DNA of 64,000 nucleotides from Candidatus Kaiserbacteria bacterium. Lineage in GTDB: Bacteria > Patescibacteriota > Minisyncoccia > Phycocordibacterales > UBA918. Both the position numbers and the translations under genes were made by a program. The notes beneath the pieces were generated by a model that saw only the letters and a list, made by a program, of their open reading frames with translations, was not told the DNA's origin and made no database searches. Each line of letters begins with the position of its first letter. Position 1 is the stretch's first letter. Of the stretch, positions 22,971 through 27,950 are shown in pieces. The DNA lies in contig JANPCG010000013.1 in NCBI GenBank assembly GCA_031430855.1, forward strand, positions 26,347 to 90,346, read 5' to 3'.

Positions 22971-25160
22971 TTACTTCGAACCTGGCCATTTTGCGACCAT
23001 AATCATGTCAGAGTCTTTCATTTCAGCTGGTAATTCCTGCCAAATAGCTTCGGTGATAAACGGCATGTATGGATGCAAAACCTTTAGTGAAGTAATGAGG
23101 TGTGTAACCAAGAGGCGTTTTTGTGACTGCACAACCTTTACATCAGTGGAAGCGAGGAGTGGTTTTGAAGCTTCAATTAACTCATCGGCAAAATAGGTCC
23201 AGACAAAGTGGTAAATTCTCTCAGATGCCAAATCAAACCGGTTGTTGTCCATTAGTGAACTAATTTCAGTAATCTGTGCCGTTAAGATTGTATTGATGAT
23301 TTCAGCATCGGTTTCAGTGAAAGGAGCGTTCGGTTGGTACTCTTCTGTTGAAGAGAGAACAAAGCGAGTGATATTCCAAATCTTGTTCGCAAATTTCTTG
23401 TAGGCGTTGACCTTGTCTGGGTCGAGATTCATGTCAGACCCTGGCGCATTATTTACCATCAGTGCCATCCGTAAGGCGTCAGTTCCATATTTATCTTGAA
23501 TCTCACTCGGAGCAATGACATTTCCCTTACTCTTACTCATTTTTTTACCGTGTTTGTCTCGGACCATACCATGGAGGTACACGTACTTAAATGGCACATT
23601 GCCTGTCCGGTAGAGTCCCAGCATAATCATGCGAGCTACCCAGAAGAAAATGATGTCTTTACCGGTTTCCATGACTGAAGTTGGGTAGTAGTTTTTGAAA
23701 TCAGTACTGTCGGGGTAGTTAAGAGTTGCTAATGGCCATTGCCCGCTACTAAACCAGGTATCAAAGGTATCAGGGTCAGCCACGACTGTACCTCCGCACG
23801 CAGTACATTCAGTTACCGTGTTAGCTAAATCCACCATCCCGGCATCACAATCAACACAGATTTTGGCCGGAATCGGAATGCCCCAAATGACCTGGCGGGA
23901 AATGTTCCAGTCTTCGATTTTGTCCATCCAATCACGGAACACACGTTCATCCCGGTCAGTTGAGAAGGAAAACGCTTTGGCGTTGACCGCTGCTACGGCT
24001 TTTTCCGCTAAAGGTTTGGTTTTAACAAACCACTGTGCCCGGATTTGCGGTTCAATTTCTCGGTCACACTTGTAGCAACAGGGAACTGAGTGAGTATAAT
24101 TTTCATCAACTCGCACCAGCAGTCCCTTCTCGGCTAATTTCTCGACAATTTTTTCGCGCGCCTCCTTGATATTCATTCCCGTAAACTCACCGGCAATCGG
24201 TAAGAGTTTACCTTGCCAGTTTATAATTTGTTCGTAGTCGAGGTTGTGGCGTTTTGCTACCTGAAAGTCGATACCTGAATGCCAGGGCGTGATGGTCATT
24301 GCCCCGGAACCCATCTCAGGATCACCAGCCTCATCTTTAATAACCGTTGCGGTAATTGGACCATTAATCCATTCTAGTTCAATTTGTTGACCATGAGTGT
24401 ACTGCGCATACTGAGCATCATCAGGATGCATCACTACGTACTTGTCACCAAATTTCGTTTCAGGGCGGGCCGTTCCAATCACAAATGGTCCATATTGAAA
24501 ATAATAGAATTTATCGACGCGTTCAATGTGTTCAGTCTCGAGGTTTGAAAGCGAGGTCTGATGTTTTGAACACCAGTTCACAATCCGAGCACCCCGGTAG
24601 AGGAGATTATCTTTTTCGAGCTGTAGGAACGTATCGTAGACTGTTTTAATCACTCGGTCATCAAGCGTAAAAAGAGCACGTGACCAATCACATGAGGCAC
24701 CAAGCGCTCGGATTTGTCCTTCCATAAATGATTTGTTGGACAGCGTAAAATCCATGATTTCCTTGTAGAGGTCCTTGGGGTCCATCGTAAATCGTGAACG
24801 CCCCTCCTTTTCGAGCTTCTTTTCATATACCACTTGTGTTTCAAAGCCAGCGTGGTCAGCACCAGGTAGCCACAGGGTTCGTTTTCCTTGCATACGAGCA
24901 TAGCGAATCATAATGTCTTGTATGGTCACAAAGAGTGCGTGTCCAGCATGGAGAGAACCATTTGCGTTTGGCGGTGGCATGACAATCGAAAATGTTTCAG
25001 CATCAGAGGCAGTGATGCCTTTCTCAATACAGACATCAGGATTAAAATACCCCGAATTTTCCCACATCGCGTATAGCTTGTTCTCGTAGTCTTGAGCACT
25101 AAAGGGCTTTAGAAAGATTGGCGGAATATTAGGGATTTCAGCGTTATTTTGTGGGTTCAT
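22971..25160 (-). CDS. valS: Valine--tRNA ligase
   Basis: HIGH region PPPNANGSLHAGHA...LWLPGADHAGFETQ, KMSKS (KMSKSKGNV), and the editing domain. Start placed at MNPQNN. Confidence 0.9.
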   Translation of the reverse strand: MNPQNNAEIPNIPPIFLKPFSAQDYENKLYAMWENSGYFNPDVCIEKGITASDAETFSIVMPPPNANGSLHAGHALFVTIQDIMIRYARMQGKRTLWLPGADHAGFETQVVYEKKLEKEGRSRFTMDPKDLYKEIMDFTLSNKSFMEGQIRALGASCDWSRALFTLDDRVIKTVYDTFLQLEKDNLLYRGARIVNWCSKHQTSLSNLETEHIERVDKFYYFQYGPFVIGTARPETKFGDKYVVMHPDDAQYAQYTHGQQIELEWINGPITATVIKDEAGDPEMGSGAMTITPWHSGIDFQVAKRHNLDYEQIINWQGKLLPIAGEFTGMNIKEAREKIVEKLAEKGLLVRVDENYTHSVPCCYKCDREIEPQIRAQWFVKTKPLAEKAVAAVNAKAFSFSTDRDERVFRDWMDKIEDWNISRQVIWGIPIPAKICVDCDAGMVDLANTVTECTACGGTVVADPDTFDTWFSSGQWPLATLNYPDSTDFKNYYPTSVMETGKDIIFFWVARMIMLGLYRTGNVPFKYVYLHGMVRDKHGKKMSKSKGNVIAPSEIQDKYGTDALRMALMVNNAPGSDMNLDPDKVNAYKKFANKIWNITRFVLSSTEEYQPNAPFTETDAEIINTILTAQITEISSLMDNNRFDLASERIYHFVWTYFADELIEASKPLLASTDVKVVQSQKRLLVTHLITSLKVLHPYMPFITEAIWQELPAEMKDSDMIMVAKWPGSK

Positions 25161-25206
25161 AGTTTTGAAATCGTAGCATGAAATACTAGGGAGAGAAAGG
25201 AAAACC

Positions 25207-25232
25207 CGCACGCGCTCACGCGTGCGGGGGAA
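25207..25232 (-). terminator. Hairpin between the small ORF and valS (terminator or attenuator)
   Basis: cccgcacgcg-ctca-cgcgtgcggg, a perfect 10-bp stem, followed on the minus strand by ttttcctttctct. Confidence 0.45.
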
Positions 25233-25239
25233 GACCTCA

Positions 25240-25410
25240 TTAGAGGTCAGTCACAAACTCATCGTCCGGTCTTTTCCAGCCCGAAAAAGGGTTGGGTGCC
25301 GTTTTTTCGGCAGGATCGAGAACTGGTTTCTTTTTGTCTTCACCAGCGCCCTCTTTGGCATTAGTGGGAAAGACGGGTGATTGGTTGCCTTCAGGAACAA
25401 ACGTGGTCAT
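25240..25410 (-). CDS. Small hypothetical ORF (56 aa) in the valS leader
   Basis: ORF from MTTFVPEG. The upstream part of the longer ORF overlaps a hairpin, so the longer form is not credible. Confidence 0.25.
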   Translation of the reverse strand: MTTFVPEGNQSPVFPTNAKEGAGEDKKKPVLDPAEKTAPNPFSGWKRPDDEFVTDL

Positions 25411-25496
25411 GATATTTTCCTTTCCCTCATTCGACACGCCTTTTGCGGGTCGAGGGGGCAGGTTTTGTATAAAACAATCCGGCTCGACCAACAAAA

Positions 25497-25530
25497 AACG
25501 GGGTTCCCGTTTTGGGAACCCCGTTTCGTT
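25497..25530 (-). promoter_or_regulatory. Leader hairpin with an alternative pairing partner (candidate attenuator)
   Basis: aacggggttccc-gtttt-gggaaccccgtt, then a T-run on the minus strand. Upstream GGGAACCC can pair with the 5' arm. Confidence 0.4.
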
Positions 25531-25872
25531 TGGTGTGATAGTTATTTTGACATCACGAACACAAACCCAGGGTTCCCGGTGGTAAACCAAAAAAAGAAAT
25601 AGGCAACTGCGTGTGCTGTCTGCATGTTTTTAGATAGTATCACAAAAATAAAAAAGACAAAATTAAGTCCTAGGGGTACCCAATAGAACCAGGAAGGGTT
25701 CAAAAGTTTAAATTACAATACACATTTACCAGGTACGAGGCCTTGCCTCGTACTTACAAAAAATGTGGTGTAATATTTAAAAACTCTATCTAGAGTGAGC
25801 GGTTGCCTTTGGTTTGTAAATTATGATAAAAATCAGACTTTGTAATTAGTGATGATTATTTTATAAAAACAT

Positions 25873-25922
25873 AAACCGCTTTGATGAAACGGCATATGTC
25901 CGTTTTCATCAAAGCGGCTTTT
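25873..25922 (-). terminator. Terminator of the 25923-26684 gene
   Basis: ccgctttgatgaaacgg-catatg-tccgttttcatcaaagcgg, a 17-bp stem with a T-run on both sides. Confidence 0.55.
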
Positions 25923-26684
25923 TCACCAGTAGGCGGTTGGATTGTGACGTAGAGGGAAATGCTGGTCTGCATAAGCCAGAGCATTCAGAGACGTCTGTTG
26001 CTTCGAAGCGGTGTCTCGGTGATAGTGCCACGCGCCCCACTCGGCTTTCTTGCGGTCGAGAAAGAAAACATCGATACCGTCGCAACCCTCGTCGTTTGAC
26101 CAAGGCACCAGTTTAACTGCCGGTACGAGCGTCAGTTCCCCGATCCAGTTGGGGTCGAAATATCCCCGGACCTGTCCCTTTTCATCTTGAAGACAGGCCT
26201 TTGGCAAATATTTCAACCATGAACCACCACGTATTGCCACAGACCAGGTTTCGGGAATGGTGCCGTCGACCGACGTTGCATTTTCGTGGGTTTTTCCGAG
26301 TGTGATACCCCACCGAGCTAGCAGCTCCTGATTTGTCACGCCTGTGTAGATGGGATGTTCGTTGAGTCTCCATGGCATTTCAGATCTTGTCAGTATATCA
26401 GAACGCCTACGAACTATGATCCTGAAGTTTTCTTCAGAAGTTAGAGCTCGCTTTTCGGTGGTTTCGAGCTTTGCTTCTGTTTCAGTAAGACTCTCCATCA
26501 ACCCCGCAATTTTTACCTCAGCAACAATGTATTTGAACGTGACCGAGCGCGGGTGGAATGTTTTCTTGGTTGTTGTGTTGGTGACGGACAGAAAGTCAGT
26601 TTCCAGACCTTCTAGCGCTCGCCAATCGGCACGTATGTCCCACACAACACCGTCTACTTTAAGCGGACGGGTTATTTCTACCAT
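25923..26684 (-). CDS. Hypothetical protein (no recognised domain)
   Basis: 254-aa ORF from MVEITRPL, flanked by an AT-rich intergenic region. Confidence 0.45.
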   Translation of the reverse strand: MVEITRPLKVDGVVWDIRADWRALEGLETDFLSVTNTTTKKTFHPRSVTFKYIVAEVKIAGLMESLTETEAKLETTEKRALTSEENFRIIVRRRSDILTRSEMPWRLNEHPIYTGVTNQELLARWGITLGKTHENATSVDGTIPETWSVAIRGGSWLKYLPKACLQDEKGQVRGYFDPNWIGELTLVPAVKLVPWSNDEGCDGIDVFFLDRKKAEWGAWHYHRDTASKQQTSLNALAYADQHFPLRHNPTAYW

Positions 26685-26762
26685 GGCGTATCTCCCAATT
26701 TTTATGACATGTTGCCACAAATCTATTTCGTATTAAAACAAATAAATATATGAATGTCAATT

Positions 26763-27950
26763 TTATAGACTACGGTTGCCTTCTGCTTGAATAAGAGGAA
26801 TAGCGCCTGCCGTACGGGCGGTAGTTGCGTGCGCGTGACCGGCCAAAGCAATCATTATGCTGTTATCAGTTGAGAGTTTTCGCTTAGGTAAATAGATTTC
26901 AACATCAGGGTGAGTGGTAAGGAGCGTCGTTTCAAAACTGCGGCGAATATATTCGTTTGCACTTACGCCACCACCTATGACTAACGTGTGAGCATTATGA
27001 GTATCAATGGCGGTCGAAGTTTTTTTAATCAAGACTTCGGTCACGGCATCTTCAAAATCTCTGGCGAGAGCATTTTTATCCGTCTCAGTCATGACCGTGT
27101 CACCGATGGAGTTACGGACGGCTGTTTTGATTCCCGAAAATGAGAAATCAAGGTCACCTGACTGCAGCATCGGACGCGGGAGCTTGTCTCTAAATGGTGG
27201 CAGATTTCCGGTTCGTGCAATGGCAGCTCGTTTTCCAACCTCTGGCCCACCAGGGTAGTCTAGTCCCATCATACGCGCGACTTTATCAAAGGCTTCACCA
27301 ACTGCGTCATCCCGGGTCTCACCAATTTTTTCGTATTTGACCCAATCGCGCATGAGAACCAGTTCGGTGTGTCCACCAGAAATCAAAAGGGCAATCGCGG
27401 GGAACTGAATTGGGGCGAGTCCGTCATCAACTTCGACATCAAATACGGACGCGAGCACATGTCCCTCCATGTGATTAACTGGGGAGACCGGACACTTTAA
27501 AACTGCTGCTAATGCCTTCGCGAAACTCACGCCGACCCATAAGGCTGGTGCAAGTCCGGGACCTGAGGTAACGGCAATCAAATCAATTTCAGGCAGTTCG
27601 TAGTCGGTGAGAAAGGTTAGCAGTGCATCACTGAGTCCGTCTTCACGTTCAAGCAAGGTAGAGATATTTTGTAGAATGCTTTCTGATACGGCAGTAGTGG
27701 CAGGAATGAGTAGTTCTGCTTCACTCAGGGCTTCTTTGAGGATAGGAACTAATTTAAGCGCGTGTTCACGCTTAGCGACCTGAGGAAAGACACCGCCAAA
27801 TTCTTTATGGATATCGATTTGTGAAAACAGGGCGTTCCCTAAAATTTCATAGGTTGCACTCGGAAAATCTCCGGTGGCCCGGACGAGGCTGATGGCCGTT
27901 TCATCACAGCTTGTTTCAATTGAGAGAATTAACATACAGGTATCCGCCAC
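26763..27950 (-). CDS. tsaD: tRNA N6-adenosine threonylcarbamoyltransferase TsaD (Kae1/Gcp)
   Basis: ILSIETSCDETAISLV N-terminus, HMEGH motif, ASKHA fold. Confidence 0.85.
   Translation of the reverse strand: MADTCMLILSIETSCDETAISLVRATGDFPSATYEILGNALFSQIDIHKEFGGVFPQVAKREHALKLVPILKEALSEAELLIPATTAVSESILQNISTLLEREDGLSDALLTFLTDYELPEIDLIAVTSGPGLAPALWVGVSFAKALAAVLKCPVSPVNHMEGHVLASVFDVEVDDGLAPIQFPAIALLISGGHTELVLMRDWVKYEKIGETRDDAVGEAFDKVARMMGLDYPGGPEVGKRAAIARTGNLPPFRDKLPRPMLQSGDLDFSFSGIKTAVRNSIGDTVMTETDKNALARDFEDAVTEVLIKKTSTAIDTHNAHTLVIGGGVSANEYIRRSFETTLLTTHPDVEIYLPKRKLSTDNSIMIALAGHAHATTARTAGAIPLIQAEGNRSL

Follow-up and report, generated by a model that had tools for sequence, protein, structure and literature searches.

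Layout of the region upstream of valS

We examined a 64,000-nucleotide stretch of contig JANPCG010000013.1 from a Candidatus Kaiserbacteria bacterium (hereafter the window) and focused on the roughly 440 nucleotides (nt) that precede valS, a class I tRNA synthetase gene. A first-pass annotation had read this interval as a valS leader containing two strong hairpin terminators, an alternative pairing, and a 56-amino-acid (aa) open reading frame (ORF). Here we describe a second, tiny ORF with a run of aromatic codons upstream of the first terminator (T1), and we argue that T1 is probably the terminator of a translation-coupled leader-peptide attenuator that controls the 56-aa ORF. As read from the sequence, three predicted transcription units follow one another head to tail; of the two treated here, the first extends from the start of the tiny ORF at 25625 to the second terminator (T2) and the next is valS. 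The features of the two units, which all lie on the minus strand, are given below in the direction in which they are read.

25634..25642, minus strand: predicted extended -10 box TGATACTAT, its hexamer ending 8 nt 5' of the tiny-ORF ATG
25542..25625, minus strand: tiny leader ORF, 27 codons plus TAA (25544-25542), peptide MQTAHAVAYFFFWFTTGNPGFVFVMSK
25584..25601, minus strand: six aromatic codons TAT TTC TTT TTT TGG TTT (YFFFWF), the proposed sensing codons
25552..25577, minus strand: putative antiterminator 5' strand, 26 nt, inside the tiny ORF (codons 17-25)
25514..25539, minus strand: putative antiterminator 3' strand, its last 13 nt being the T1 5' arm
25493..25527, minus strand: terminator T1 (stem, AAAAC loop, stem, T6; -20.7 kcal/mol)
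25437..25489, minus strand: 5' untranslated region (UTR) module after T1, hairpin GGTCGAG...CTCGACC followed by small hairpin CGC-AAAAG-GCG
25240..25428, minus strand: Shine-Dalgarno sequence GAGGGAAAGGA (25428-25418) and 56-aa ORF (25410-25240), the proposed target of the switch
25201..25228, minus strand: terminator T2, end of the small-ORF unit
25170..25178, minus strand: predicted valS promoter, extended -10 box TGCTACGAT
22971..25160, minus strand: valS, 729 aa, class I tRNA synthetase (PF00133 at 9.9e-116, PF08264)

The two terminators, the 56-aa ORF, and the start of valS shortly after the second hairpin are all as first annotated; GAGGGAAAGGA precedes the ORF. T1 forms 14 pairs (25527-25495) and ends in a run of six T residues (25498-25493). 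T2 forms 10 pairs, nine of them G-C (25228-25205), followed by TTTT at 25204-25201, and the valS ATG at 25160 lies 44 nt past it. The surrounding 2-kilobase (kb) region contains 13 terminator-like sites (2.3 ± 1.6 in shuffled sequences), and the leader RNA folds with a z score of -3.91, which none of 200 shuffles equaled. Strict terminators were found 3' of 48 of the 898 ORFs in the genome and in 1 of 737 internal control windows. They are therefore not common to every gene, and two of them within 330 nt are above background. The possibility that T1 and T2 are dispersed repeats was rejected; their arms occur 3 and 5 times genome-wide with both strands counted.

The tiny aromatic ORF and its pairing with T1

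The tiny ORF was spotted through a conserved block upstream of T1 in an alignment of the window with the related genome G018. A DNA search returned five more copies, and a sequence-only model built from these seven copies found further ones in the genus. In total, the leader is present in 27 of the 128 genus genomes (25 at E below 1e-3, plus G118 and G123), with one copy in the genome of the window. Weak genus matches in G023, G105, and G044 were false positives on inspection, and a search of 150 further genomes from the order with the sequence model gave a single match, likewise false, at the beginning of an ordinary gene. A scan of genome contigs for a conserved 19-mer pattern returned at least 119 matches in unrelated taxa and was unspecific because the pattern is too AT-rich. 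We analyzed 24 leaders in detail, the 27 minus G007, G118, and G123, and the counts in this section refer to them unless stated otherwise. In G007 (L179, about 1510-1545), TAG stands in place of the conserved Trp codon, and ORF calling gave no small ORF downstream; this copy may be decaying.

The peptides are 21 to 27 residues long and follow the pattern M-x(5-9)-[YF][YFWC][FWY][FW]-W-F-[TSR]-x-[RGE]-E-x-R. The aromatic core is present in all of them; position -1 is Trp in 21 leaders, and position 0 is Phe in all 24 (TTT in 23, TTC in 1). Within the core, F, Y, and W interchange, and substitutions stay aromatic despite two-nucleotide changes such as TTT to TGG. Differences in leader length are whole codons. 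In 9 of the 11 pairs compared, the proportion of synonymous differences (pS) exceeded that of nonsynonymous differences (pN), with values of 0.24 to 0.56 versus 0.07 to 0.12 among G089, G012, G078, and G075; the remaining two pairs hardly differ, being one or two substitutions apart. Judged from these comparisons, the tiny ORF is under purifying selection as a peptide. At the nucleotide level, conservation is strong in the block TATTTCTnTTTnTGGTTTA. The ORFs of the genome, 302,740 aa in all, contain only two runs of five or more aromatic residues, and a crude genome scan for leaderless tiny ORFs ending before a strict terminator gave seven candidates, of which only this one carries a codon run. 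A slippery frameshift site in TTTCTTTTTTTGG was considered and rejected, the long T-run being confined to the window and replaced by TAT or TGG in relatives.

The position of the tiny ORF relative to its -10 box matches a common layout of gene starts in this genome (G000), which measures 1.08 Mb and is 99.96% complete; many families of the order have genomes of 0.4 to 1.2 Mb. For the start analysis, we used a crude set of 901 ORFs of at least 120 aa, comprising 847 first ATGs and 4,097 internal in-frame ATGs. The extended -10 motif TGnTAnnnT ends 6 to 10 nt 5' of 16.4% of the first ATGs versus ∼0.6% of the internal ones, and its background farther upstream is ∼0.3% per position. Shine-Dalgarno-like motifs are not enriched, occurring before 10.3% of starts and at 10.3% inside genes. 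Because the -10 box is enriched at starts and the Shine-Dalgarno motif is not, leaderless or near-leaderless mRNAs look like a normal layout in this genome, and the leaderless type is apparently a major way of expressing its genes. A -10 box 6 to 10 nt before the ATG in 16% of genes also bears on how gene starts and small ORFs are called in such genomes. Among the leaders, a TAnnnT hexamer ends 6 to 8 nt before the ATG in 18, and the tiny-ORF mRNA is predicted from this spacing to be leaderless or near-leaderless. As for gene content, ribosomal protein uL30 was not found in the genome of the window, L9 was present, and uL30 was detected in 13 of 14 reference genomes searched as a control. Taken with the missing aromatic-synthesis genes described below, this gene content would fit Patescibacteria (CPR).

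Folded without the T1 3' arm, the window RNA forms one long imperfect hairpin in which 25577-25552 pairs with 25539-25514 and the stop codon of the tiny ORF (25544-25542) sits in the apical loop. We refer to this hairpin as the antiterminator; it and T1 are mutually exclusive because its 3' strand contains the T1 5' arm. A terminator/antiterminator choice at the first hairpin had already been suggested in the first-pass annotation, and the folds and the covariation described below support it and extend it by the 27-codon ORF, which had been overlooked. The alternative pairing named there is real, and its upstream element, GGGAACCC, is the base of the 26-nt strand that pairs with 25539-25514, but this element lies at 25577-25570 and not at 25552-25559, a shift of about 18 nt.

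The same pairing recurs throughout the leaders. The tail of the ORF pairs with the terminator 5' arm in 24 of 24, with energies of -21 to -34 kcal/mol compared with means of -9 to -18 kcal/mol in shuffles that keep mononucleotide content only (z scores of -3.0 to -6.8); of the 300 shuffles made for each leader, no more than one reached the native energy. When the fold stops before the 3' arm, every leader pairs 10 to 18 nt of the 5' arm with its ORF tail. The antiterminator starts 5 to 9 nt after the last aromatic codon, the stop codon precedes the terminator 5' arm by 13 to 26 nt, and the terminators, all present at -15 to -38 kcal/mol, end 43 to 66 nt after the stop codon. The pairing strands differ among genomes yet remain complementary (GGGAACCC/GGGTTCCC in the window, GTCCGCGGGAAC/GTTCCCGCGGAC in G018, and GAGAAGCTCG/CGAGTTTCTC in G089). 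A covariance-model alignment had 24 forward rows, made up of 22 of the 24 leaders plus G007 and G123; G018 and G128 were not recovered on the right strand, and reverse-strand rows and one stray were dropped. In this alignment, which leans toward the structure because it was fitted to the structure under test, 89% of the cells are in standard pairs, and both partners have changed in 11 of the 14 pairs; the slid controls reach 37 to 62% paired and 0 to 4 pairs with double changes. RNAalifold predicted no pairs on a MAFFT alignment of the 24 antiterminators, which was out of register. In G098, G113, G117, and G018, the N-terminal codons pair with a stretch just after the antiterminator base, giving a 1:2-like hairpin. 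Pairing of the freed T1 3' arm with the translation start of the small ORF was tried and rejected (mean z of +0.35 over 22 leaders). Taken as a whole, the leader shows three hallmarks of an attenuator: an ORF with a codon run, an intrinsic terminator before the target gene, and an overlapping, mutually exclusive antiterminator.

Downstream of T1, the UTR in most of the 25 leaders folded contains a long hairpin whose sequence varies, followed by a (C)UCGCAAnnnnGCGAG-like hairpin and a purine-rich Shine-Dalgarno sequence; this module had no Rfam match. The gene that follows varies and usually encodes 53 to 127 aa (361 aa in one genome). In the window, the 56-aa protein is 43% identical to its G018 homologue and shares an N-terminal TFVPxGN and a C-terminal GW...DL with the proteins of G018, G101, and G137. 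Many of the downstream proteins bear an N-terminal TFVxxGN (the window; L003, L014, L181, L183, L184, and L187), and many end in Gly/Ser-Trp followed by acidic residues, as in SGWKRPDDEFVTDL in the window and GGWLDGYMS and GGWYNSELAD elsewhere. Their middle part is hypervariable and of low complexity, and these small proteins could be precursor-like or effector-like. A search of a large protein collection with the 56-aa protein matched only the protein itself. A small hairpin, GACCTC-TAAT-GAGGTC (25231-25250), straddles the stop codon of the 56-aa ORF directly 5' of T2, and G137 has a comparable one, GTCGACC-TCTAA-GGTCGAC, at the small-ORF stop.

Proposed attenuation and its alternatives

The anatomy of the leader and its conservation, the exclusive pairings with their covariation, the purifying selection on the peptide, and the conserved promoter motif of valS (see below) are established. 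With moderate confidence, we consider that an aromatic leader-peptide attenuator of the small ORF, followed by an independent valS, is the best overall explanation of the locus. Under this proposal, transcription would begin at or a few nt from the tiny-ORF ATG, giving a leaderless mRNA. A ribosome that translates smoothly would melt the antiterminator 5' strand and reach the stop codon, where it would cover the upper part of the 3' strand and leave the T1 5' arm free, so that T1 would form and transcription would end after ∼130 nt. A ribosome delayed on the aromatic codons, with its A site no farther than the Trp codon, would stay upstream and leave the antiterminator free. Once formed, the antiterminator would block T1 and let RNA polymerase read across the structured 5' UTR and on to the Shine-Dalgarno sequence and the 56-aa ORF, and T2 would end the unit. 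These positions assume a ribosome footprint that extends roughly 12 to 15 nt downstream of the decoding site. Most simply, the leader would sense how much charged tRNA is available for the aromatic amino acids (Trp, Phe, and Tyr), a signal that we put forward only tentatively and at less than even confidence.

It is important to note that several points weigh against this proposal. Sequence analysis predicts the transcription starts, the end of transcripts at T1, and a translated tiny ORF, and the signal is likewise a prediction. The window copy has no clear 1:2-like hairpin or other upstream segment that would sequester the antiterminator, so that the default without any translation would be read-through. 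The frame test is weak: the frame of the tiny ORF is open for 21 to 27 codons in all 24 leaders, and a second frame is open for at least 20 codons in 16 of them. The mononucleotide-only shuffles and the structure-fitted alignment temper the pairing statistics in the same way. The controlled proteins have no visible link to aromatic amino acids; those downstream of the leaders, including the 56-aa ORF, gave no significant match in Pfam, PHROG, or NCBIfam, the only three weak Pfam matches (E of 0.014 to 0.088) being below the curated cutoffs. Moreover, chorismate synthase, TrpA, and prephenate dehydratase were not found in the genome of the window (controls were detected in 14 of 14 reference genomes), so that the classical scheme, in which an amino acid is sensed to govern its own synthesis, does not apply. 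Finally, the peptide is conserved beyond its aromatic codons (WF[TS]x[RG]ExR), as would be expected of a sequence-specific arrest peptide more than of simple codon sensing; RNA pairing, however, constrains the same stretch.

The last point leads to the most serious rival, which we nevertheless regard as rather unlikely. The tiny ORF may encode an arrest or sensor peptide (YFxFWF[TS]x[RG]ExR), acting alone or with a small molecule or translation inhibitor, whose stall site would select the structure; the RNA switch would be the same and the signal another. TnaC and antibiotic-sensing leader peptides act through such nascent-chain stalling. Purifying selection along the whole peptide, rather than on the aromatic codons alone, speaks for this rival, as do the near invariance of Trp at -1 and Phe at 0 between neighbors that interchange F, Y, and W, the lack of a connection between the controlled genes and amino acid synthesis, and the apparent inability of the organism to make aromatic amino acids. 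Set against this, the C-terminal conservation overlaps the antiterminator strand, and RNA constraint could explain it. A stall at the stop codon would favor termination and one on the aromatic run read-through, and the sequence alone does not decide between them. A bolder version of the attenuator, which we consider improbable, is that in an aromatic-auxotrophic and probably host-dependent bacterium the leaderless peptide YFxFWF[TS]xRExR would report aromatic supply or a host ligand and turn on fast-evolving orphan small proteins (TFVxxGN, GW-acidic) that would act on the host or respond to it. If true, such a host-linked sensory switch would represent a new type of regulon for these bacteria and not a biosynthetic attenuator.

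A second rival is the original reading, in which the whole 440 nt form a valS leader and valS needs read-through of both hairpins. We consider it highly improbable, and we are correspondingly confident that the element is not a valS leader. The valS N terminus was present in 123 of the 128 genus genomes; the best 30 loci were examined, and the start could be placed in 28. In 26 of these 28 close loci the unit (tiny ORF or small ORF) is missing from the 1.5 kb 5' of valS, the two exceptions being the window and G098. The first-pass annotation saw no obvious promoter between T2 and valS, which has to be revised: TGCTACGAT (25178-25170) ends 9 nt before the valS ATG and is conserved in relatives, where a (C)ATGnTACnAT box ends 9 to 10 nt before the ATG in 14 of the 28 loci and 21 to 36 nt before it in 12, and is missing in 2. 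No Shine-Dalgarno sequence was found 5' of valS at this locus, and the valS mRNA is predicted from the spacing of its -10 box to be leaderless or near-leaderless. Thus, valS appears to start from its own promoter by its start codon, uncontrolled by the hairpins; the 10-pair T2 stem with its nine G-C pairs also speaks against the leader reading.

The leaders themselves point the same way. Among the 27 leader genomes, 19 have at least 1.3 kb of downstream sequence without valS, and 2 more lie on contigs too short to tell. Further, the order in G018 is tsaD, the unit, an additional gene for 67 aa (L011, 1771-1974) that has a strong Shine-Dalgarno sequence and a terminator of its own, and valS. 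The peptide has no conserved run of Val codons. The first-pass annotation had itself named three findings that would tell against a valS leader, and all of them were made in full or in part: the leader is not conserved at valS, a separate promoter follows T2, and the small ORF is a conserved gene with a Shine-Dalgarno sequence and a terminator of its own. The comparison corrects an attractive but wrong reading, that of valS under novel read-through control.

What favors a valS leader is mainly position. valS follows within 333 to 644 nt in six of the 27 leader genomes (G000, G018, G098, G101, G007, and G137), whose valS proteins are 53 to 85% identical, and every unit shares the strand of valS. 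In Deinococcus deserti, tRNA synthetase genes have also been reported to be preceded by leaderless leader peptides (PMC4007540). Adjacency in 6 of 27 is far above chance. It suggests that the position is old or that the interval between tsaD and valS attracts insertions, and a possible link to valS, or such a hot spot, counts against a strict separation of the two units. In all six genomes where the unit adjoins valS, a GC-rich terminator equivalent to T2 and then the valS box are kept.

The spacer between tsaD and valS shows how the present arrangement may have arisen. In 19 of the 28 loci, tsaD is found no more than 1.5 kb upstream of valS, and it often ends 46 to 120 nt before the valS start. 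The tsaD-valS spacer is 46 to 120 nt in several relatives (L143, L151, L162, and L164) and 1.6 kb here (25161-26762). By this comparison, tsaD is the ancestral neighbor of valS, and 1.6 kb comprising a 265-aa ORF and the attenuator unit has been inserted between them. G090 carries a 27%-identical relative of the 265-aa ORF in its own tsaD-valS spacer. The spacer looks like a hot spot for accessory insertions.

A third rival, also very unlikely in our view, is that the ∼130-nt transcript ended by T1 is itself the product, as a small RNA or as the mRNA of a functional 27-aa peptide, with the 56-aa ORF transcribed separately and the antiterminator being mere internal structure. The peptide is conserved and T1 is strong, and trans-acting attenuator RNAs and leader peptides are described for Sinorhizobium in the available text of PMC6614838 and PMC7298713. 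However, no conserved -10 box was seen by eye (uncounted) between T1 and the small ORF in the window and G018, and the UTR in between keeps its structure and accompanies the leader in front of different genes. The pairing also uses exactly the nucleotides of the terminator 5' arm in 24 of 24 leaders, an overlap that is the signature of a switch. A function in trans could exist alongside the switch. Finally, a translation-independent switch, in which a protein or small ligand would choose between antiterminator and terminator by binding the leader RNA, with no role for the ORF, is hardly credible: the strong conservation of TATTTCTnTTTnTGGTTTA and the often open other frames would suit it, but pS exceeds pN, two-nucleotide F/Y/W interchanges stay aromatic, the ATG keeps a fixed leaderless distance from the -10 box, length differences are whole codons, and no Rfam family matched.

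Two further features lie upstream of the attenuator, within the 1.6-kb spacer.

25875..25917, minus strand: terminator-like hairpin closing the upstream 265-aa orphan ORF (ORF 25923-26720)
25731..25773, minus strand: conserved motif TTACACCACA plus hairpin AAGTACGAGG-CAAGG-CCTCGTAC, outside the attenuator and within an AT-rich stretch

The 265-aa ORF had no significant Pfam, PHROG, or NCBIfam family, and neither the plus-strand ORFs across the region nor a 53-aa long reading of the leader frame had a Pfam match. The second motif, TTACACCACA-N7-9-AAGTACGAGG-CAAGR-CCTCGTACTTG, occurs in three copies in the genome of the window; relatives carry copies as well (G005, G022, and three in G024; loci L002, L004, L005, L008, L009, and L014, about 1950-1990). 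Copies are placed near gene starts, in G101 between T2 and valS, and the stem shows a compensatory A/T to T/A swap between copies. The motif may act as an RNA hairpin or as a palindrome to which a protein binds.

Relation to known leaders

T-box riboswitches are the usual leaders of aminoacyl-tRNA synthetase genes in Gram-positive bacteria, and they likewise choose between a terminator and an antiterminator before a synthetase gene. Here, in contrast, the switch is separated from valS by 330 nt and two genetic elements and contains a conserved ORF. The Rfam T-box model had no match at E up to 10 in positions 24000-27000 of the window and none at E up to 1 in six related loci, which confirms the first impression that no T-box is present. 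None of the Rfam Phe, Trp, His, Leu, and Thr leader families reached the gathering score in the window region or the six related loci. Scans at loose thresholds returned sub-threshold hairpin noise only, and a Leu_leader match on the opposite strand of L173 (27.6 bits versus a gathering score of 50) was dismissed as noise.

The closest structural parallel is with the enterobacterial trp, phe, his, and leu leaders, with which the element shares a short ORF with a codon run, an intrinsic terminator, and a mutually exclusive antiterminator whose formation would depend on the ribosome. Classical attenuation logic is summarized in PMC4007540 and Phe-rich leaders are covered in PMC3082878, as far as the available text of these sources goes. 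The differences from the enterobacterial leaders are that the start is predicted to be leaderless rather than led by a Shine-Dalgarno sequence, that the stop codon sits in the apical loop of the antiterminator, that the window copy has no clear segment 1 and no Rfam leader match, that the peptide sequence is conserved, and that the targets are orphan small proteins in an organism without the three aromatic-synthesis marker genes.

For the leaderless start, the best comparison is D. deserti, in which 14 leaderless leader peptides have been predicted for attenuation, according to the available text of PMC4007540. In those cases, transcription begins right at the AUG of a tiny ORF rich in particular residues, upstream of a gene that bears a Shine-Dalgarno sequence, and a like layout is predicted here. 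It is another lineage, however, and its enriched residue matches the downstream synthetase or pathway, whereas here the aromatic codons precede orphan proteins. The leaderless polycysteine short ORFs of mycobacteria (bioRxiv 10.1101/834739) and the whiB7 upstream ORF (PMC10274678) are likewise short ORFs that sense amino acid supply or translation stress and tune genes on the same transcript. In the present element, a strong intrinsic terminator and a covarying antiterminator are evident.

Literature searches for leaderless mRNA or attenuation in Patescibacteria or Saccharibacteria turned up nothing relevant beyond incidental mentions. The element offers a testable regulatory device in an uncultivated group with ∼1-Mb genomes for which we found almost no described regulatory RNA. 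If the proposed attenuation is true, reduced organisms keep leaderless, translation-coupled attenuation for genes unrelated to amino acid synthesis. The kind of device predicted here is known; what is new is the lineage, the family of leaderless aromatic peptides, the stop codon in the antiterminator loop, and the orphan cargo.

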